NCBI GenBank assembly: GCA_017470715.1
Contig: JAFUYE010000119.1
Span: 7,024-71,023, forward strand
Direction of reading: 5' to 3'
DNA length: 64,000 bases
DNA from: Selenomonadaceae bacterium
GTDB lineage: Bacteria; Bacillota; Negativicutes; Selenomonadales; Selenomonadaceae
Of this stretch, positions 3,449 to 27,114 are shown piece after piece. Made by a program: the position numbers and the translations under genes. The notes under the pieces were generated by a model. The model was given only the letters and a program-made list of their open reading frames with translations, did no database searches and was not told where the DNA came from. Position 1 is the stretch's first letter. Each line of letters starts with the position of its first letter.

Positions 3449-6400
3449 TTGCTTGACGGCGCGGCACGAATCGGCGACCTGCTTGACGCGGCAAAAAATC
3501 TCGGCATGACAAGTTTGGCGATAACCGATCACGGCACGATGTACGGCATTATCGATTTTTACAAAGCGGCACAAAAACGCGGTATCAAGCCGATTATCGG
3601 TTGCGAAGTTTACGTTGCGCCCAAATCCCGATACCTGCGCGAAGAAGTTGACGGCACGAAATATTTTCATCTGGTTTTGCTTGCCGAAAACGACACCGGT
3701 TACAAAAATTTGCTCAAGTTGACTTCTGCGGCGGCGATTGAAGGTTTTTATTATCGTCCGCGTGTCGACAAGGAATTGTTGCGAAAATATCACGACGGTT
3801 TGATTGCGTTGTCGGCGTGCGTTGCGGGCGAAATTCCCCGTGCGATTTTGCAAAACGACATTTCGCGTGCAGTTGAGCTTGCGAAAGAATACGTCGACAT
3901 TTTCGGGCGGGAAAATTTTTTTCTGGAGTTGCAGAATCACGGGCTTGACGAAGAATTTAAAGTTCGTGACGCGCTCAAAAAAATTTCCGCCGAGTTGAAC
4001 ATTGAACTTGTCGCAACAAACGATTCGCATTACGTTCGCCGCGAAGATTACGAGTTTCATGATTTGCTTTTGTGTTTGCAGACGAACAGGACGGTTGCCG
4101 ACAAACACCGCATGAGATTTTCTTCCGACGATTATTTTTTGAAGTCACCCGCCGAAATGCGCGAACTTTTTGCCGACACGCCCGAAGCTTGCGATAACAC
4201 GTTAAAAATTGCCGAACGTTGCAACGTGACGATTGAATTCGGCAAATTTCAGATGCCCGAATTTCCGTTGCCCGAAAATTATTCCGACGCCGCAACTTAT
4301 CTGCGCGACCGGTGTAACGAAAAAATTTCCGCACGCTATCCGACCGTCACCGAAGAAATTCGCGACCGTTTGAATCACGAATTGGAAATTATTCACGGCA
4401 TGGGTTACGACGGATATTTTTTGATTGTCTACGACTTCATAAATTTTGCGCGACGAAAAAAAATTCCCGTCGGTCCCGGACGCGGTTCGGCGGCGGGCAG
4501 TCTCGTCGCTTACGTGCTGGAAATTACCGAACTCGACCCGTTGAAATATAATTTGCTGTTTGAAAGATTTTTGAATCCCGAACGCGTCACGTTGCCCGAT
4601 ATTGACGTTGATTTGTGTTACATTCGCCGCGATGAGGTTATCGAATACGTTCGCAACCGCTACGGCGCGGACAGAGTTTCGCAGATTGCAACTTTCGGGA
4701 CGCTCGCCGCCAAAGCCGCAATTCGGGACGTTGTGCGCGTGTTGAATTTGGATTTCAACATTGGCACGAAACTTGTCAAAATGCTCCCCAACGTGCTGAA
4801 CATTACGCTTGATGACGCAATGGCAAAATCCAACGCTCTGCGCAACGAATACGAAACGAATCCCGACGCGAAAAAAATTTTGGACTTCGCGCGCAAACTC
4901 GAAGGACTTCCGCGACATATTTCCGTTCACGCGGCGGGCGTCGTCATTTCGCAACGGCCGCTTGTCGAAGTCGTTCCGTTGCAAATGTCAAACAACGTTT
5001 TGATTACGCAATTCGACAAAGACAAAGTCGAAGAACTCGGCTTGCTGAAAATGGATTTTCTCGGACTGCGCACGTTGACGATTATCGACGAAACAATTTC
5101 CAATGTCCGAAAATCTCACGGCTTTGAATTGAAAATTTCCGACATTCCGCTTGTCGACGAATTGACGGCGAAAATGTTATCGGACGGAAAAACCGGCGCG
5201 GTGTTTCAAATGGAGTCGCCCGGCATGACGAATTTGGTCAAAGACTTGCAACCGACCGGCTTTGAAGATTTAATTCCGACCGTCGCGCTGTATCGACCGG
5301 GGCCGCTCGGTTCCGGCATGGTTGAAGATTTCATCGCGGGCAGACACGGACGCAAAGTCACGAATTATTTGCACCCGAAACTTGAGCCGATTTTGCGCGA
5401 AACTTTCGGCGTGATTTTGTATCAGGAACAAGTCATGCAAATCGTTCAGACGCTGGCGGGATTTTCGCTCGGACAAGCTGACATTTTGCGGCGCGCAATG
5501 GGTAAGAAGAAAGCCGAAATTTTGCTCGCACAGAAAGAAAATTTCTTGTCGGGTTGCGAAAAAAACGGCGTCGACAAAATTCTTGCGGAAAAAATTTTCG
5601 AGTTGCTTACTCACTTCGCGGACTACGGCTTCAATAAATCGCATTCGGCGGCATATGCTTTGCTTGCCTGGCAGACGGCTTATCTCAAGGCGCATTTCCC
5701 TGCGGAATACATGGCGGCGATGATGTCGTCCGTTGGCGACGCGGACAAAGTTGCGGCTTACGTCGAACTTTCGCGGAGCATGGGCATAAAAGTTTTGCCG
5801 CCCGATATAAATTTTGGTGACGTGCATTTTTCCGTTGACGACGGGGCAATTCGTTTCGGCTTGTCGGCGGTAAAAACTGTCGGCGAAAGTGCGTCGGAAA
5901 GCATTATCGCTGAACGCAAACGCGGCGGCAAATTTAAATCGCTTGAGGATTTTTGCGCACGCGTGGATGTAAAAAGTTGTCCGCGTCGCAGTCTCGAAAA
6001 ACTTATCAAGTGCGGTGCCTTCGACAGCTTGGACACTCGGCGCACGGCTCTGCTTGAATCGCTCGACATTGCCATTGCTTCCGGCGCGAAGAAACAATTC
6101 AATCGCAAAAGCGGCGCGATAAGTTTGTTCGGCGACGACGAAATTCCTTTCAAGTTGCTCGACGTGCCCGAACGTCCGAAAAATGAAATTCTCGCGTGGG
6201 AAAAAGAAATTTTGTGCTTTTACGTTTCCGGTCACCCGCTTGACGATTTTCGCGAAAAATTTTCGGGACTTACCACAAGTGCGGAAATCAACGACGGAAA
6301 ATTTTTGGGCAAGCGTGTCAAAATCGGCGGCATTGTAACGGACGTTCGACGAATCATGACAAAACGCGGCGACCCGATGGCGTTCATGCAACTCGAAGAT

Positions 6401-19790: not shown

Positions 19791-20046
19791 TCCGTGAATT
19801 TTTCAAAAGCCTAACACACGACGAATCAAATGGCAAGCGCGGCAAAAATTTTCAGCTTAAATACATGTCGCAAGGCAAAATTGTTGATATTATACATTTA
19901 ATCGAAGCCTATAAAAAATAAAGGAGTGATTCAAATTGCCGAATCAAATGATGCGCCAAATCATGATTGAAAATTTTCAGGATTCGTTGCGGCTTGTTCG
20001 TCACTTGATGAATTTCAGCGTCTAGGATTTTGCTGCGGCACTCGGC

Positions 20047-20922
20047 GTGACGAGCGAAACCGTCAATCATCTTGAGACGAAAAAAATCAAAATGACCGCG
20101 ACGCAATATCTTGCAATCGCCGCGTTGACGGACAGTTATTTCGCGAATCATGCGGAACTTTTGCCGAAACTCAAGGCGGTTATCGACAGCGACGGAAAAA
20201 GTTACGGCGAAGAATACGAAACATCTTTTCGCGGCAATTCGCTGTTGCAACGCTGGTTTGAAGATTTTATCGACTTCGACGACGTGACGGACGATTTCCC
20301 TGCGGACGAAGAATTTTTCGACGACGATGAAGTTGATTCGGACGACGAAGATTTTCCCGACGAAAAACTTTGGGGCTTGGCGCAGAATTATAAAGTTTTC
20401 CTTGACGCCGAAATTTTGCTTGCCGAGGACGCGGAAAATTTCACCGAAAATCTGACTGCGGCATTTGAAGCGGCGAACGATAAAGTCATCATGCCGTTGC
20501 GCTCCGTCGAACAACTTCAAGATTCGGCAAATCAAGACACGGAATTTCAAGAAAATATTTCGCAGGCAATGTTGCTTATCAAAAAACTGCAAGCGAACGG
20601 CGTTTTGCAAATTCACGGCGAAGAAACCGACCCCGACTTTCATGACACGATTATTCAAGTTTTCGGGCGTTTCAAAAGCAAATATCCGCTTTGCCTCGTC
20701 ACGCCGAACGAACAACTTGCACGCGAAATTTTGTCGCTCAACGATTCCGACGACGAGGACGCTTTTGAAATTGCGGCGGCTTTCGTCGAAGACGGCATGA
20801 TTAACTTTTATGTCGCGGAAGAAGATTCTGCGGAAGATTTTGCAGATGACGCGGAAACTGATTCGGACGCGCCCGAAGAAAATTTTACGGACAAAAAGTT
20901 TAACGGTTGGTCGGAACTGTAA
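20047..20922 (+). CDS. acidic protein with a truncated XRE-type HTH and a degenerate PIN-like domain; first gene of the kinase/vWA/PP2C cassette
   Basis: Track ORF. The reading frame continues upstream to TTG 19936 (AAGGAG SD) but is broken by TAG 20023-20025 inside the HTH. D/E-rich linker. The C-terminal half aligns by eye with the N-terminal domain of the next gene. Confidence 0.6.
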   Translation: MTSETVNHLETKKIKMTATQYLAIAALTDSYFANHAELLPKLKAVIDSDGKSYGEEYETSFRGNSLLQRWFEDFIDFDDVTDDFPADEEFFDDDEVDSDDEDFPDEKLWGLAQNYKVFLDAEILLAEDAENFTENLTAAFEAANDKVIMPLRSVEQLQDSANQDTEFQENISQAMLLIKKLQANGVLQIHGEETDPDFHDTIIQVFGRFKSKYPLCLVTPNEQLAREILSLNDSDDEDAFEIAAAFVEDGMINFYVAEEDSAEDFADDAETDSDAPEENFTDKKFNGWSEL

Positions 20923-20936
20923 GGGAGTGTTCGCTC

Positions 20937-23312
20937 ATGGTGAAAAATCCCAACGAAATTCAATCGGAATTTTTGGAACGTTGCGTCCGCGATTGCGACA
21001 GGATTTTTATCGACACGTGCAGTTTTTTGGAAGAAACCATGTACGATTTTTTTCAAAACATTGTGCCGATTCTTGAGCGCGAACAAAAAACCGTCATTGT
21101 TCCGCTGGCGGTTTGCCAAGAATTGGAGCGATTCGCGAACAATCCCGCCGAATGCCGAAAAGAACATCCCGATAATCCCAACTTGAACAAATTGGCGATT
21201 CATGCCTGCGAAACAATTAACGTCCTGAAGCGGGCTAATATCGTTCAAATTTTTGCCGACCCCGACGATAAAAAATTCGCCGACAATATTTTTCTGTATG
21301 TGTTCCTGAAAATCCGGCTGAAATACAACGTGTTGTTTATCACGCAGGACAACGGGCTTGCACACGACGCATGCGACATTTTCAAAGACAGTCGTTCCGT
21401 CAAAGGCGTCAAAAAAATTCTGGTCTGCAAGATTGTCAAAAACGGTTACCTGAAAAATTTTTCCGACGACAAGCCGAAAAAATTTCCGCAACCGGTCAAG
21501 CCGTCATCCGAAAATATTCCGCCGAATGAACGCTTTGCATTTGCCAATGAAGTCGTCGATATCGAAGGAAATTTGCCCGTCACTAAAATTCCCGTCGAAG
21601 GCGAATACGTTACGGCGGTTCGCAACGGTCAAACGAAACAAATTCGCCTGATTGAAGAAGTCGGCTCCGGCGGCGAAGGTTCCGTTTACAAAACCGATTT
21701 CGACGGTTATGTCGCGAAAATTTACAAGCCCGAAAAAATTACGCGCCTGCGTCACGAAAAACTTAAACTTATGCTCTCCAAAGACATCAACTGCGAAGGC
21801 GTCTGTTTTCCGCTTGCAATGATTCACAATCAACGCAACGAATTTGTCGGTTATCTTATGCGTGCGGCGTCCGGTAAAGATTTGGGCAAAAGCGTTTTCA
21901 TGCCGATGTTGCTGAAAAAATATTTCCCGAAATGGAACAGAGTCGACACCGTTCAACTTTGCGTGACGATTCTCAAAAAAATTAAGTATCTGCATGACCG
22001 CAACGTTATTCTCGGCGACATCAACCCGTACAATATTTTGGTCGTTTCGCCGACGGAAGTTTATTTCGTCGACACGGACAGTTATCAGGTCGAAGGTTTC
22101 ATTTGTCCCGTCGGAATGCCGCTTTTCACCGCGCCCGAACTTCAAAAGAAAAAATACGGTCTGCGAACTTTGGGCAACGAAAATTTTGCGGTGACGACTT
22201 TGCTGTTCATGATTATGCACCCCGGCAAGCCGCCTTACGCAATGCAGGACGGCGAAGGCATCGTCGAAAACATTATCAAGGGCGAATTTTCTTACCCGCT
22301 CGGCGAACGCAAGACCGGCAAAGTGCCGCAAGGTCCGTGGCGTTTTTGCTGGAGCCATTTGACGTACAAAATCAAAGAGGCGTTCTACGAAACTTTTTGG
22401 CGCGACGGCATGTATCACGACGAAAAAAATCGTCCCGGCACGGGCTTTTGGCTCAGGCTGTTTGAGTACTATCTCAAGTTGCTTAAAAACGGGACGATGA
22501 CTGCAAATGATGAAGAGTCAATTTTAATTTTCCCGACACGTTTCAAAAGAGAGAAAGACAAAATTTACGCCAAGTGCAAGCTTTGCGGCAAGGAATTCGT
22601 CGAGGACTCACTTGAACAGGGCATTTGCCGCGCTTGCCTTCACGACGGCGAAAAATATCAATGCGAACGTTGCGGCGGCGAAATAATTTACACCAACTAC
22701 CAAAAATACATCAAGCGTGCCAAGCGTTACAAAATTTGTCGTGCCTGCTTTGAAAGGACGAATACCATCTTTGAACGGCGCAGTTGCAAAGATTGCGGGC
22801 GCACGTTCGAGATAACTTACGGGCAAAAAGAATTTTTCGACGCGAAAGGCATGAGCTTGCCGACTCGTTGCGAGGTTTGTCGAAAAAAGCCGCGTCCGTC
22901 GCCGACGGTTCGTCACACGCCGACAACCGTGACAATGCCGCCGCGCCCGACACCGTCGCAACCCGTCGAGCCGCCGAAGAAAAACGGTTGGTGCTTTATC
23001 ACAACTGCCGTCTGCGAATATTTGGGCAAGCCCGATGATTGTTTCGAGTTGACAACGCTCAGAAATTTTCGCGACAACTGGTTGGCACTTCAAACCGGCG
23101 GCAAAGAAGAAATTCGCGAGTATTACGAAATTGCGCCGAAGATTGTCGAAAAATTGGCTGCGTCCGACGAAAAAGATTCGCTGTACGAAAAAATTCGGCT
23201 GGATTATATCGAGCCGTGTTTGGAAGAAATTTTGCACGGGCACAACGAAAATTGCCGCGCACGCTATCGCGAAATGGTTTTGATGCTCAAGCAAAAATTT
23301 TCGATTGATTAA
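20937..23312 (+). CDS. PIN-like domain / Ser-Thr protein kinase / multiple zinc-ribbon fusion protein (TerY-P-type kinase)
   Basis: ATG 20937 after an AAGGGAG SD. Kinase motifs: GSGGEGSVYK, VAKIYK, LGDINPYNIL, DTDSY, TAPE. N-terminal IFIDTCSF / VIVPLAVCQELE / LFITQDNG. C-terminal run of at least four CxxC pairs. Confidence 0.8.
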   Translation: MVKNPNEIQSEFLERCVRDCDRIFIDTCSFLEETMYDFFQNIVPILEREQKTVIVPLAVCQELERFANNPAECRKEHPDNPNLNKLAIHACETINVLKRANIVQIFADPDDKKFADNIFLYVFLKIRLKYNVLFITQDNGLAHDACDIFKDSRSVKGVKKILVCKIVKNGYLKNFSDDKPKKFPQPVKPSSENIPPNERFAFANEVVDIEGNLPVTKIPVEGEYVTAVRNGQTKQIRLIEEVGSGGEGSVYKTDFDGYVAKIYKPEKITRLRHEKLKLMLSKDINCEGVCFPLAMIHNQRNEFVGYLMRAASGKDLGKSVFMPMLLKKYFPKWNRVDTVQLCVTILKKIKYLHDRNVILGDINPYNILVVSPTEVYFVDTDSYQVEGFICPVGMPLFTAPELQKKKYGLRTLGNENFAVTTLLFMIMHPGKPPYAMQDGEGIVENIIKGEFSYPLGERKTGKVPQGPWRFCWSHLTYKIKEAFYETFWRDGMYHDEKNRPGTGFWLRLFEYYLKLLKNGTMTANDEESILIFPTRFKREKDKIYAKCKLCGKEFVEDSLEQGICRACLHDGEKYQCERCGGEIIYTNYQKYIKRAKRYKICRACFERTNTIFERRSCKDCGRTFEITYGQKEFFDAKGMSLPTRCEVCRKKPRPSPTVRHTPTTVTMPPRPTPSQPVEPPKKNGWCFITTAVCEYLGKPDDCFELTTLRNFRDNWLALQTGGKEEIREYYEIAPKIVEKLAASDEKDSLYEKIRLDYIEPCLEEILHGHNENCRARYREMVLMLKQKFSID

Positions 23313-23331: not shown

Positions 23332-24111
23332 ATGAATGATTTGTTGAGGAAACAAGACCTTGAATCGAATCCGACGCCGCGAGTTCCGATTTGTCTTTGT
23401 CTGGACGTGAGCGGCTCAATGGGCAGAATTGTCGGCGGCAATGTTCAAAACACGGGACGGCGCGAATATCACGACGGAAAATGGTGGAATATCGTCGAAG
23501 GCGGAATTACCGCGTTGCAAGAGATGATTGGCGGCGTCAATCTTTTTTACGACAACTTGCTTGAAGATGACGTGGCGCGCTATTCGGCGGAAATTTGCGT
23601 CGTAACTTTCGGCGGCAATTCGCCCGAACTTATTTTGGACTTCGCGAATTTGGACAGACAAGAATCGGAACGTCAACAAAAAATTTCCGCGTTGGAAGCT
23701 CACGGCGAAACTCCGTTGGGCGAGGCTGTCAACATGGCTTTGGATTGTCTGGACACGCGCAAACGCGAATTCAAAGATGCCGGCGTCGATTATTTTCAAC
23801 CGTGGCTTGTTTTGATGACCGACGGCGAACCCAACGGCTCAACTGCCGAATTGAACCGCGCCATTTCCCGCACGAACGAATTGGCTAACAATCGCAGATT
23901 AACGATTTTCCCGATTGGTATCGGCGAAGAAGCGGATATGAATTGTCTTGCAAAATTTTCGCCGAAACGCCCGCCGCTCCGTTTAAAAGGCATGAACTTT
24001 AAAGGTTTCTTCGAGTGGCTCAGTGCCAGCGTTTCCAGAACTTCGCAATCAATGCCCGGCGACAAAATCAAGCTTGACCTTGACGGTCTTAAAGGTTGGG
24101 CAGATTTGTAA
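23332..24111 (+). CDS. vWA-domain protein (TerY-like)
   Basis: GAGGAGG SD. MIDAS motif DVSGSMG, then LVLMTDGEPNG. Confidence 0.85.
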   Translation: MNDLLRKQDLESNPTPRVPICLCLDVSGSMGRIVGGNVQNTGRREYHDGKWWNIVEGGITALQEMIGGVNLFYDNLLEDDVARYSAEICVVTFGGNSPELILDFANLDRQESERQQKISALEAHGETPLGEAVNMALDCLDTRKREFKDAGVDYFQPWLVLMTDGEPNGSTAELNRAISRTNELANNRRLTIFPIGIGEEADMNCLAKFSPKRPPLRLKGMNFKGFFEWLSASVSRTSQSMPGDKIKLDLDGLKGWADL

Positions 24112-24125
24112 GGAGCAAATTTTTT

Positions 24126-25127
24126 ATGGAATGGAAATCTGTTTGTTGCGCGGTGCAGGGCAAAGGTCACTCGAAAAAAAATATTCCCTGCCAAGACAAA
24201 GTTGCGCGGCTTGAAATGAATGGCGTACAAGTCATTGCTTTGGCGGACGGCGCGGGCTCGGCGTCAATGTCACATTTCGGCGCGGAATGTGTCGTCGACA
24301 GCGTTTCAAAATTCGTCGCGGAAAATTTTCTTGATTTAATCGCGCAGGACGACGGACGAATTGTCAAGCAAGAAATTTTGTCCGTTGCATTGCAGGCTTT
24401 GAACGACGCGGCGAAAATTCATGACTGCACGTTGAAAGATTTGGCGTCGACGTTGCTGGTTGCGGCTGTCGGTGACGGAAAATTTTTCCTTGTACATTTG
24501 GGCGACGGCGTTATCGGTTACTTAAATGACGCGGGCTTGAAGACTGCCTCGACGCCCGACAACGGCGAATTTTCCAACGAGACGGTTTTTGTCACGTCAA
24601 CAAATGCCGCCGCGCACATGCGACTTTACAAAGGCTTGCTCAAAAAAATTTCGGGCTTTATCTTGATGAGCGACGGCAGCGAACAAAGTTTGTACAACAA
24701 GCGCAATAAAAATTTGGCTCCCGCCGTCAAACGATTAATGCACCGCACATGTTTGGTCGACGCGGAAATTTTGACGCCGCAACTTGAAGACGCGATTAAA
24801 TCGGTTATCCTCGACAACACGCAGGACGATTGCAGTATCGCGATATTGGCGCGGAATTCCGAACAGTTGCCGCCGCTGAACGAATTGCCGCTGTCCGAAC
24901 GTCAAGAACTTTTTCGTATCGACGGAAGTTCTGCCTTTCGCAAAGTTCGCCGAAAAATTTTTCGATGCGATAAAATATGTGCTCTCTTGGCAAAACCTTT
25001 GACGTTAAAGCAGTTGGCGCGCAAACTTCATTTGAAACCGCATTACGCCGAAAAAAAATTACGTCGACTCACGGACGCGGGCATTGTGACACGAACGGCG
25101 AACGGCTTTAAAACTTACGGCAACTGA
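24126..25127 (+). CDS. PP2C-like phosphatase with a C-terminal winged-helix segment
   Basis: AAGGAG SD. QGKGHSKKNIPCQDKV...ALADGAGSA...LMSDG pattern of PP2C_2-type proteins. C-terminal LKQLARKLHLKPHYAEKKLRRLTDAGIV looks like a wHTH. Confidence 0.75.
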   Translation: MEWKSVCCAVQGKGHSKKNIPCQDKVARLEMNGVQVIALADGAGSASMSHFGAECVVDSVSKFVAENFLDLIAQDDGRIVKQEILSVALQALNDAAKIHDCTLKDLASTLLVAAVGDGKFFLVHLGDGVIGYLNDAGLKTASTPDNGEFSNETVFVTSTNAAAHMRLYKGLLKKISGFILMSDGSEQSLYNKRNKNLAPAVKRLMHRTCLVDAEILTPQLEDAIKSVILDNTQDDCSIAILARNSEQLPPLNELPLSERQELFRIDGSSAFRKVRRKIFRCDKICALLAKPLTLKQLARKLHLKPHYAEKKLRRLTDAGIVTRTANGFKTYGN

Positions 25128-25204: not shown

Positions 25205-25280
25205 TGGTGGAGACGAGGGGGATCGAACCCCTGACCTCTTGACTGCCAGTCAAACGCTCTCCCAGCTGAGCTACGCCCCC
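25205..25280 (-). tRNA. tRNA-Ala (GGC)
   Basis: The reverse complement folds as a cloverleaf: GGGGGCGTAGCTCAG...; anticodon loop CTGGCAG; TPsiC arm GGTTCGATCC; encoded CCA. Confidence 0.9.
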
Positions 25281-25496: not shown

Positions 25497-26432
25497 TCAG
25501 TCAATCTCAATCAATTCGTATTGCGGATTGCCCATGCCTTTTTCAGCCATAGCCGAAAGTTGACGCAAGCCGTGACGAGATTCAATGCGCTCCTTCATGT
25601 CGTGGCTGTCGGACGCGGCGTAAATCATATCCGCACAAGCTTGGTCAACCGCCAAAATATCCGTCGAAACTGCAATGCCGATGTCTTTCATTGTCGGTTC
25701 GGCAGCGGTGACGCCCGCACAGTCGCAATCGACGCTGATTCGGCGCATGACGTTCAAAAAGACAATGTGCTTGCCGAAATGGTCGCAAGTTGCCTGTGCG
25801 CTGTCCGCCATGAGTTCCATGAAATATTCTTTGTCCGGCCACGCTGTCCAATCGGGGACGTTGTTCGGGTCGACGCCGTGAACTTGTGCCTTGCCCAGAT
25901 GTCCGCTTGCGCAACCGATAGCGATATTTTTCATTGAGCCGCCGAAACCGCCCATTGCGTGCCCTTTGAAATGCGTCAAAACAATCAGCGAATCATAATC
26001 GGCAAGATGTGCGCCCATTGCAACTTCCTTGAGATGGAAAGGTTTGCGGACAGGGAAATTAACCGTCTTGTCGCCTTCGTCCATGATGTCCACGTCGCAG
26101 AACGTCCAGCCGTTGACTTTGAGCGTGTCGCGGTGCCCTTCGTCGGTGAAACGGTCGCCTTCGTACAGCGTGTTGCATTCGACAATTTTGCTGTCGGGAA
26201 CTTGCGCCTGAAATTCTTTGACCATGTCACGCGGCAAAATGTTGGGACCGTGTTTTTCGCCCGTGTGAAGTTTGATGCCGACTTTGCCGTAAATGTTTTC
26301 GTTGATGATTTTGTAAAGCTTGATGAGATGCGCCGCGTCGATTGTTTTTGTGAAGTAAACTTTTGCCGCCGTGCCCGAATAATTTTCGCCGGTAACGTTT
26401 TTCGAGCCGACGACGGGAGCTTGATTAGCCAT
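25497..26432 (-). CDS. DUF362-domain protein
   Basis: THFKGHAMGGFGGSMKNIAIGC motif characteristic of DUF362. Confidence 0.7.
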   Translation of the reverse strand: MANQAPVVGSKNVTGENYSGTAAKVYFTKTIDAAHLIKLYKIINENIYGKVGIKLHTGEKHGPNILPRDMVKEFQAQVPDSKIVECNTLYEGDRFTDEGHRDTLKVNGWTFCDVDIMDEGDKTVNFPVRKPFHLKEVAMGAHLADYDSLIVLTHFKGHAMGGFGGSMKNIAIGCASGHLGKAQVHGVDPNNVPDWTAWPDKEYFMELMADSAQATCDHFGKHIVFLNVMRRISVDCDCAGVTAAEPTMKDIGIAVSTDILAVDQACADMIYAASDSHDMKERIESRHGLRQLSAMAEKGMGNPQYELIEID

Positions 26433-26487
26433 AAAAATTTTCCTCCTCGTTCAGAAATTAACCCCGCGCAGGGGATTTGCTTAACAA

Positions 26488-26517
26488 ATAATATTTCTTT
26501 GAGCCGACTCAAGTCAA
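26488..26517 (-). promoter_or_regulatory. sigma70-like promoter for the DUF362 gene
   Basis: Minus strand TTGACT, 18-nt spacer, TATTAT. Confidence 0.4.
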
Positions 26518-26560
26518 GAAAAATTTTCGATAAGCGGCGTTTCACATTGCACATTACGTA

Positions 26561-26596
26561 AAAAAAATCCCCTGCCCGAAATTTTTGAGCAGAGGT
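26561..26596 (-). terminator. probable terminator after rplL
   Basis: Minus strand CCTCTGC...GCAGGGG hairpin followed by ATTTTTTTT. Confidence 0.45.
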
Positions 26597-26742
26597 TTAT
26601 AGAAATTTCCATACGCTTGCGTTGTTTGAACGCGGCGATAAAATTTAATTTTCGATAACGTTGCGGATAGCTCCAATTGGATGCAACGTCACGTTGCCGC
26701 TTGTATTTCAGCGAAGTCGCGCAGGTTTCAAGTTCGATTTGA

Positions 26743-27114
26743 TTACTTAATTTCGACGGTCGCGCCGACTTCTTCAAGTTTGGCTTTGAGAGCTTCGGCA
26801 TCAGCTTTCGAGATTTTTTCTTTGACGGGAGCGGGTGCGCCGTCAACCAAAGCTTTGGCTTCTTTGAGGCCGAGACCGGTAGCTTCGCGGACAGCTTTGA
26901 TGACTTTGATTTTTTCTTGACCGACATTGGCAAGAACAACGTCGAATTCGGTTTTCTCTTCTTCAGCTTCAGCAGCCGCCGCAGGAGCCGCCGCCGCAAC
27001 AGCAACCGGAGCTGCCGCGCTGACGCCGAATTTTTCTTCCATCGCTTTGACGAGTTCGCTGAGTTCGAGAACCGTCATGCTTTCAATAGCTTGCATAATT
27101 TCTTCTTTAGTCAT
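26743..27114 (-). CDS. rplL: 50S ribosomal protein L7/L12
   Basis: 123 aa; Ala-rich hinge and the conserved C-terminal domain ([22 protein letters not shown]). Confidence 0.95.

Follow-up and report, generated by a model that had tools for sequence, protein, structure and literature searches.

A PIN domain on the kinase of a TerY-P-type switch and its decayed relative in a neighbouring gene of a Selenomonadaceae bacterium

The TerY-P triads are switches that combine a protein of the TerY type with a von Willebrand factor A (vWA) domain, a PP2C phosphatase, and a Ser/Thr kinase. According to PMC11090510, they were first proposed as metal-sensing switches, and their kinase typically ends in a zinc ribbon (both citing Anantharaman 2012), and TerY-P-like modules have been shown to be anti-phage (citing Gao 2020). 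The TerY-P system of Gao 2020 is described there as a stand-alone defence cassette, whose kinase is fused to an OB-fold (PMC11090510). The relatives in Escherichia coli are YegI, PphC, and YegL. YegI is an active Ser/Thr kinase that is dephosphorylated by PphC, as stated in two sources (10.1101/819920; PMC13232886 citing Rajagopalan et al. 2018 and 2020), and the yegI, pphC, and yegL genes are described as barely expressed (10.1101/819920; PMC13232886). Here we analyze a four-gene cassette of this kind in a stretch of 64,000 nucleotides from a Selenomonadaceae bacterium (assembly GCA_017470715.1, contig JAFUYE010000119.1, positions 7,024 to 71,023 of the forward strand), which is called the window below and supplies all coordinates. 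The kinase of this cassette begins with a PIN domain that looks like an intact nuclease, and the gene directly upstream of it, gene 1, carries a degenerate relative of that domain.

Judged from its predicted proteins, the cassette is a member of the TerY-P triad family and represents a PIN-bearing branch of it: a vWA protein with a metal-ion-dependent adhesion site (MIDAS), an adjacent PP2C phosphatase, a kinase of the YegI family, and a C-terminal zinc ribbon are all present. Three things are added to the triad, namely the N-terminal PIN domain and a C-terminal CFI-box on the kinase, and an optional gene, here gene 1, that joins a helix-turn-helix (HTH) to a pseudoPIN domain. The four genes are closely spaced on the plus strand between a gene of the metallo-beta-lactamase (MBL) fold and tRNA-Ala(GGC), which lies on the minus strand at 25205..25280, directly after the cassette.

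The third gene (23332..24111, plus strand; alternative TTG start at 23305) encodes the TerY/YegL-type vWA protein, which has a Pfam VWA match of 33 bits, the MIDAS motif DVSGS, and a tail that reads ...SQSMPGDKIKLDLDGLKGWADL. Its alignment with E. coli YegL has 35% identity (E 9e-35) and includes DVSGS, and its homologues bear the names 'YegL' and 'toxicity protection region of plasmid R478' at JGI. The fourth gene (24126..25127, plus strand) encodes a PP2C_2 phosphatase (Pfam, E 2.4e-46) that is 25% identical to E. coli PphC (E 1e-14) and continues into a C-terminal winged-HTH-like extension, where matches to MarR and HTH_20 stay below the cut-off. As in E. coli, the three proteins of the triad are encoded side by side, and all three are homologous to their E. 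coli counterparts; the kinases have in common the core with its helical extension, and YegL resembles the vWA protein in its MIDAS motif and in its C-terminus of the form ...S-x-S-x-P-G...G-W-x-x-[LV]. However, PphC lacks the winged-HTH-like tail of ~80 aa (253 aa versus 333 aa here), and E. coli has no HTH-pseudoPIN gene. The system of Gao 2020, as portrayed in PMC11090510, is alike in its logic of vWA protein, PP2C phosphatase, and Ser/Thr kinase and in placing a nucleic-acid-binding domain at the C-terminus of the kinase; the present cassette differs in having zinc ribbons and a CFI-box at that end and a PIN domain at the other.

The second gene (20937..23312, plus strand; 791 aa from ATG) encodes the multidomain kinase, which consists of the PIN domain, a YegI-type Ser/Thr kinase, three zinc ribbons, a Pro-rich linker, and the CFI-box. 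The original prediction, made from the letters of the DNA, had proposed a PIN-fold nuclease at the N-terminus from the spacing of acidic residues, and the motifs that it quoted (IFIDTCS, CQELE, FADN, and ITQD) are found in the open reading frame (ORF) 20937-23312. The fold is borne out by a Pfam PIN_4 match, a confident AlphaFold2 model, and Foldseek matches to solved PIN domains. On the full kinase, the PIN_4 match (residues 25-142) scores 20.9 bits, just below the cut-off of 21.9; on the isolated domain of 190 residues it reaches 24.5 bits and exceeds this cut-off, and 51 of 60 homologous domains have the match as well. The AlphaFold2 model, with 60 sequences as input, has a pLDDT of 92.7 and a pTM of 0.86, and its best Foldseek matches in the PDB are nearly all PIN domains: 3ix7, SMG6 (2hww), Utp24/Fcf1 (5yz4 and 9n7a), EST1A (2dok), MJ1533 (3i8o), and MCPIP1 (3v34). 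The Foldseek probability is 1.0 for most of them and 0.96 for MCPIP1, with target-normalised TM-scores of 0.42-0.66; for 3ix7, 2hww, 5yz4, 2dok, and 3i8o, the probability is 1.0 and the TM-scores lie at 0.53-0.66. Two structures of inactive PIN domains, SMG5 (2hwy) and Utp23 (4mj7), are also among the matches.

The domain occupies 21000..21470 (kinase residues ~22-178), and D26, E62, D111, D116, T136, and D138 are intact in it. Across the 60 aligned domains, D26, T27, E62, D116, and T136 are invariant. In a set of 73 kinases from many phyla, D26, E62, D116, and D138 are kept in 71-73 members (D138 in 71/73), as is the Thr/Ser of the first motif, and D111 is present in 66. Since the four acidic residues are nearly invariant across phyla, selection for catalysis is implied, and the PIN domain of the kinase, so far as residues can tell, looks active. 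It shares with PIN_4 and with the SMG6 and Fcf1/Utp24 endoribonucleases the fold and the acidic residues D, E, D, and D, the last within a T-x-D motif; the difference lies in its fusion to a protein kinase, within an operon of kinase, phosphatase, and vWA genes. In the literature search, which did not reach Anantharaman 2012, no paper was found on a PIN-kinase fusion or joining PIN domain, TerY, kinase, and PP2C, and the word 'kinase' is absent from the main text of the PIN-like domain classification of 2017 (PMC5499597).

The original prediction had further seen a degenerate PIN-like paralogue in gene 1 and had taken the two segments to be homologous. This was confirmed by alignment, well beyond chance, by three methods (BLASTP, profile hidden Markov model (HMM), and hhalign), and the quoted motifs VFLDAE, VEQLQ, FHDTII, and VTPN are found in the ORF 20047-20922. 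BLASTP aligns gene 1 with the PIN domain of the kinase over 123 aa at 26% identity (E 6e-9); an HMM of the gene-1 family, built from 30 sequences (the window copy and 29 relatives), recovers the kinase N-termini with E-values from 1e-15 to 1e-46; and hhalign of the two profiles gives a probability of 99.9 and an E-value of 3.8e-34 over 158 columns. Homology between the gene-1 domain (20392..20817) and the kinase PIN domain can thus be regarded as certain at the level of sequence comparison.

The decay of this domain goes further than the single replaced Asp that had been pointed out. In the window copy, the equivalent of E62 is Gln and that of D138 is Asn, so that the set of acidic residues expected of an active PIN domain is incomplete. 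Most of the 30 family members have Q, A, N, C, or Y in place of the catalytic Glu, and only ~13 have Asp at the equivalent of D116; at the equivalent of D138, 14 have D and 12 have N. The IDTCS motif has lost its Thr and Ser, and the equivalents of D26, D111, and T136 are retained. All 29 gene-1 copies in an unrooted tree of 100 PIN domains fall into a single clade (support 0.995), which is deeper than the kinase clade (1.88 versus 1.13 substitutions per site). The tree fits a single duplication, after which the gene-1 copies would have changed faster.

Gene 1 had been read as starting at 20047, which is the start of a remnant only. Comparison with orthologues places the true start at a TTG at 19936, with AAGGAG 9 nt before it; the full-length gene (19936..20922, plus strand) comprises an XRE-type HTH, an acidic linker, the degenerate PIN-like domain, an acidic tail, and a C-terminus ...NGWSEL, and it ends 14 nt before the kinase start. 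The closest relative (L001), an uncultured Selenomonadales genome with a kinase of 82% identity, has an intact orthologue of gene 1, whose DNA is 97% identical over positions 19920-20110. Other orthologues match Pfam HTH families above the cut-off (HTH_3 with 37 bits in L007, HTH_31 with 39 bits in L050). In the window, an in-frame TAG at codon 30 (20023..20025), where the orthologue has GAG (Glu), interrupts the XRE-type HTH. Recoding of this TAG was considered and rejected as unlikely, since TAG also terminates three other long ORFs in the window. The window genome would thus make, at best, an HTH-less remnant of gene 1.

Both gene 1 and the vWA gene end in the same type of peptide. The vWA proteins of the cassettes nearly all end in ...S-x-T-S-Q-S-x-P-G-E...G-I-K-G-W-[A/G]-E-L, and the gene-1 family ends in ...G-W-[E/D/S]-[E/T]-[L/I]; in the window, the two tails lie at 24094-24108 (vWA) and 20905..20919 (gene 1, G-W-S-E-L), on the plus strand. 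When the pattern [GSDKE]-W-x-x-[LIV] was counted at no more than two residues from the C-terminus, it was found in 88 of 98 vWA proteins and 28 of 29 gene-1 proteins, versus 0/79 PP2C phosphatases, 0/87 kinases, and 9 of the 2972 other ORFs that these loci (L001-L080) contain. E. coli YegL itself ends in KGWTSV. This tail at the extreme C-terminus, G-W-x-[E/D/S/T]-[L/I/V], which is common to the vWA and gene-1 families, is new here. It may be the peptide by which these proteins dock onto the kinase or the phosphatase. As loci without a CFI-box retain the tail, the CFI-box is not its obligatory receptor. We also entertain, as a speculation that is more probably wrong than right by a wide measure, that a single docking site on the kinase or phosphatase accepts either the HTH-pseudoPIN protein or the vWA protein, with the common tail directing both to it; the decayed PIN would then be a phospho-regulated decoy and repressor, by which transcription of the cassette, and possibly also the masking of the PIN domain, would be coupled to the state of the switch.

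The remainder of the kinase follows the YegI pattern. The core with its helical extension spans 21633..22511 (residues ~233-525). Its Pkinase match (residues 238-449) has 27.6 bits, below the Pfam cut-off of 31.7, as is common in this divergent family, and GGEG (245-248), K261, D361/N366, D379, and APE (399-401) are invariant in the family alignment. The core is 26% identical to residues 17-313 of E. coli YegI (E 4e-25). It is followed by three zinc-ribbon or treble-clef units at 22569..22886 with six CxxC motifs from C547 to C648, all invariant in the alignment; at least four CxxC pairs had been noted, so that their presence stands and the count is corrected to six. The last unit is a zf_Tbcl (residues 616-652; 27.9 bits, cut-off 24), and the Pro-rich linker that had been described next was located at residues ~651-684. 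Nine kinases of other loci (L015, L016, L024, L035, L038, L040, L045, L048, and L056) have ~55 extra residues at the N-terminus (MSITVERIAKTLSIS...QGIEV...), which presumably resemble the small HTH-like IF2_N type.

The C-terminal module begins at CFITTAVCEYLGKPDDC, at residue 686, as had been proposed; its length, given as ~130 aa, was measured as ~106 aa. It had been left unnamed and was identified as NCBIfam CFI-box-CTERM (NF041770; residues 686-752, 59.2 bits, cut-off 40), located at 22989..23309. The AlphaFold2 model (pLDDT 92.0) is a five-helix bundle, for which no fold match was found in the PDB or among viral structures (best E 3.4 and 3.7), so that no function can be inferred from the fold. 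The presence of five invariant or nearly invariant Cys is suggestive of a metal site. The statement in the original prediction that this module also occurs as small stand-alone proteins proved right: proteins of ~200 aa in other Selenomonadaceae are 56% identical to kinase residues 677-782, and there are many representatives of 105-250 aa. Three small proteins (P0243, P0298, and P0319) consist of a zf_Tbcl-type zinc ribbon and a CFI-box only, like the C-terminal end of the kinase. The profile matches 11,554 cluster representatives of 105-1332 aa, nearly always at the extreme C-terminus. When the closest 97 representatives with 200 aa or more were surveyed, Sel1/TPR repeats proved to be the usual N-terminal partner (44 Sel1), and zf_Tbcl (11), kinase (8), and dynamin-like GTPase (4) also occur. 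The module of the window is like other NF041770 proteins in its score above the curated cut-off and its extreme C-terminal position, and differs in its partner, which is mostly Sel1/TPR elsewhere and a kinase here. No paper in the literature search mentions the 'CFI-box'.

The window genome has two further CFI-box proteins on contigs of its own. One, on contig C19 (L084, 1670-3544, minus strand), combines a zinc ribbon with Sel1 repeats; the other, on contig C143 (L085, 5037-7604), has 855 aa and no Pfam match. The latter gene is preceded by three genes for dynamin-like GTPases, and a PAPS-reductase/4Fe-4S gene and an ORF of >1200 aa follow; this neighbourhood is possibly a conflict island. 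Two neighbour proteins of 460 aa at these other CFI-box genes were considered as a common partner and rejected, being unrelated to each other.

The architecture of the kinase had been called unusual, which does not hold, as it belongs to a large conserved family. The full architecture is common (926 word-seeded matches, many of full length, with identity down to 46%), and versions of ~680 aa occur without the CFI-box. A total of 184 loci were found among species-representative genomes, in Selenomonadales, Clostridia, Bacilli, Campylobacter, Treponema, Prevotella, Desulfovibrio, Thermoguttaceae, and Succinivibrionaceae, and thus in Bacillota, Bacteroidota, Spirochaetota, Campylobacterota, Desulfobacterota, Planctomycetota, and Pseudomonadota. 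The order of kinase, vWA (one or two copies), and PP2C is kept in ~77 of 80 loci, and gene 1 lies directly upstream of the kinase in ~30 of the 68 loci with room for it. In many loci, a tandem vWA pair, each protein with its G-W tail, stands between kinase and PP2C (L007-L009, L012, L013, L015, L019-L021, L023, L026, L033, L039, L041, L056, L070, and L079). In one of these, Megasphaera massiliensis L033, a shorter second PIN-kinase ORF (4313-5947, 544 aa) lies directly upstream of the full one. Two cassette copies each are present in Bacillus niameyensis (L045 and L052, ~16 kb apart), Campylobacter gastrosuis (L071 and L072), and Selenomonas massiliensis (L017 and L075).

Within the family of the host, the kinase was found in only ~4 of 120 other genomes, and in one of six sampled genomes of the same genus. 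A copy on the Lysinibacillus plasmid pFN9B, whose kinase bears the RefSeq name 'CFI-box-CTERM domain-containing protein', lies between IS1182 copies and a MobQ relaxase gene. It is this distribution, together with the plasmid copy, that argues for an accessory and mobile character of the cassette. The tRNA gene beside it in the window is in keeping with this character. An empty site was sought in five genomes of the same genus, and nothing downstream of rplL or around the closest homologues of the gene at 25497-26432 matches the flanks of the window. Compared with window positions 25497-27114, the stretches next to rplL that were taken from these genomes (L105-L110) lack the gene 25497-26432, tRNA-Ala, the cassette, and the MBL-fold gene. 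Since the genes that follow rplL in the window are not found there, the region by the ribosomal protein cluster is rearranged or variable in the window genome.

With confidence somewhat above an even chance, we propose that the cassette is a phosphorylation switch with a built-in PIN nuclease as its output, and that the HTH-pseudoPIN protein is a dispensable regulator of it. The proposal builds on the observed domain identities, residue conservation, paralogy, gene order, patchy and mobile distribution, and common tail. The soluble Hanks-type Ser/Thr kinase and the PP2C phosphatase would set the phosphorylation state of the module, with the TerY-like vWA protein as partner or substrate. The output would be the SMG6/Fcf1-like endonuclease of the PIN_4 type, with its catalytic residues intact, at the N-terminus of the kinase polypeptide, most likely an RNase, and the three C-terminal zinc ribbons would probably hold nucleic acid. 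Phage infection or another stress would throw the switch, upon which cleavage of RNA by the PIN domain may arrest the cell or the invader. Gene 1, as a fourth and optional component, would join an XRE-type repressor to a decayed PIN duplicate; most likely a regulator of the cassette, it could bind operon DNA or could engage the kinase by PIN-PIN pairing or through the common C-terminal tail. RNA cleavage, the role of gene 1, and an anti-phage function are steps that we infer.

Several points weigh against this proposal. The Foldseek E-values of the PIN matches are moderate (2e-4 to 1e-2), and a sequence search of the PDB with the profile of the 60 PIN domains gave nothing significant (3i8o with E 0.11, SMG6 with E 0.33), so that a fold search was needed for the assignment. 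Control of the PIN domain by phosphorylation is likewise something that we infer, and the experimental support, comprising YegI activity and its dephosphorylation by PphC, comes from the E. coli relatives and from no PIN-bearing member. The neighbours in the window are housekeeping genes, with no defence-island context seen for the window itself, and the phage collection holds no copy of the cassette. With PADLOC v2 models, the vWA protein has no match even at E up to 10, gene 1 matches no defence model, and the kinase is matched only weakly, in its core, by the PD-T4-6, MkoA, and Stk2 models. In addition, gene 1 cannot be an indispensable antitoxin, because it is missing in about half of the loci and bears a nonsense codon here. 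The remaining protein, the PP2C phosphatase, matches PDC-M21C alone in PADLOC (E 3.6e-4), and an assignment to a catalogued defence system was rejected, as none emerged at E up to 10.

The housekeeping neighbours and the lack of PADLOC systems would suit, as the best of the alternatives though still a doubtful one, an ordinary cytoplasmic stress or RNA-metabolism switch, in which the kinase and phosphatase would tune a PIN enzyme for site-specific RNA processing, as Fcf1/Utp24 and SMG6 are in eukaryotes. The physiological cue for this, for instance metal or redox state, could be sensed at the MIDAS of the vWA protein or in the Cys-rich CFI-box. Among solved PIN folds, the nearest ones are indeed RNA-processing enzymes, and the five conserved Cys of the CFI-box, the metal sensing originally proposed for TerY-P triads in the account of PMC11090510 (citing Anantharaman 2012), and the very low expression of yegI, pphC, and yegL described in 10.1101/819920 and PMC13232886 all point the same way. 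However, the patchy occurrence within the family, the spread across phyla, the plasmid copy between IS elements, and the genomes with several copies fit mobile cargo better, and related TerY-P-like modules have proved anti-phage according to PMC11090510 (citing Gao 2020).

The position of gene 1, directly upstream and 14 nt from the kinase start, recalls VapBC, in which a PIN nuclease is likewise accompanied by an upstream gene for a DNA-binding protein. By this token, the HTH-pseudoPIN protein would play the part of VapB: it would form a heterodimer with the PIN domain, the counterpart of VapC, and thereby neutralise it, and it would repress the operon. The kinase, phosphatase, and vWA protein would only modulate the pair. 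Gene 1 does join a DNA-binding HTH to a PIN-like fold that could pair with an active PIN, its long acidic stretches could mimic nucleic acid, and the cassette occurs on a plasmid. Yet about half of the loci with an intact PIN-kinase lack gene 1, and in the window a nonsense codon in gene 1 stands beside an intact kinase, so that the PIN domain is evidently tolerated without it. Moreover, conservation is much stricter for the kinase, vWA, and PP2C genes than for gene 1. An obligatory antitoxin with a stand-alone PIN toxin, by which VapBC is defined, is not what is found here: the upstream protein holds a dead PIN copy rather than being a short antitoxin peptide and is optional and broken, and the PIN domain is part of a signalling enzyme of 791 aa. 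We therefore consider a toxin-antitoxin-like pair improbable.

Inactive PIN domains are common, and SMG5 (2hwy) and Utp23 (4mj7) are among the fold matches, but a PIN domain that merely binds nucleic acid or serves as a scaffold, as in these two, in a kinase whose output is phosphorylation of other proteins only, is the least probable explanation of all, given that the four acidic residues and the first-motif Thr/Ser are kept in 71-73 of 73 kinases and that the duplicate in gene 1, free of that constraint, lost catalytic residues.

The TerY-P/YegI-PphC-YegL triad is widespread, and in the cassette described here its presumed output, the PIN nuclease, sits on the kinase itself. The cassette offers in addition a natural inactive duplicate of the nuclease fused to a repressor, and it exposes a short C-terminal motif common to the vWA protein and the duplicate. 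If both of these proteins do compete for one docking site, the cassette would be a kinase-gated RNase controlled by a pseudo-enzyme, and the tail would give a first handle on how TerY/YegL vWA proteins, E. coli YegL included, engage their kinase. Work on the cassette could also provide a first functional context for the very common CFI-box module, and could show by what mechanism the switches of this family operate in general and whether they serve as a phage-defence effector.

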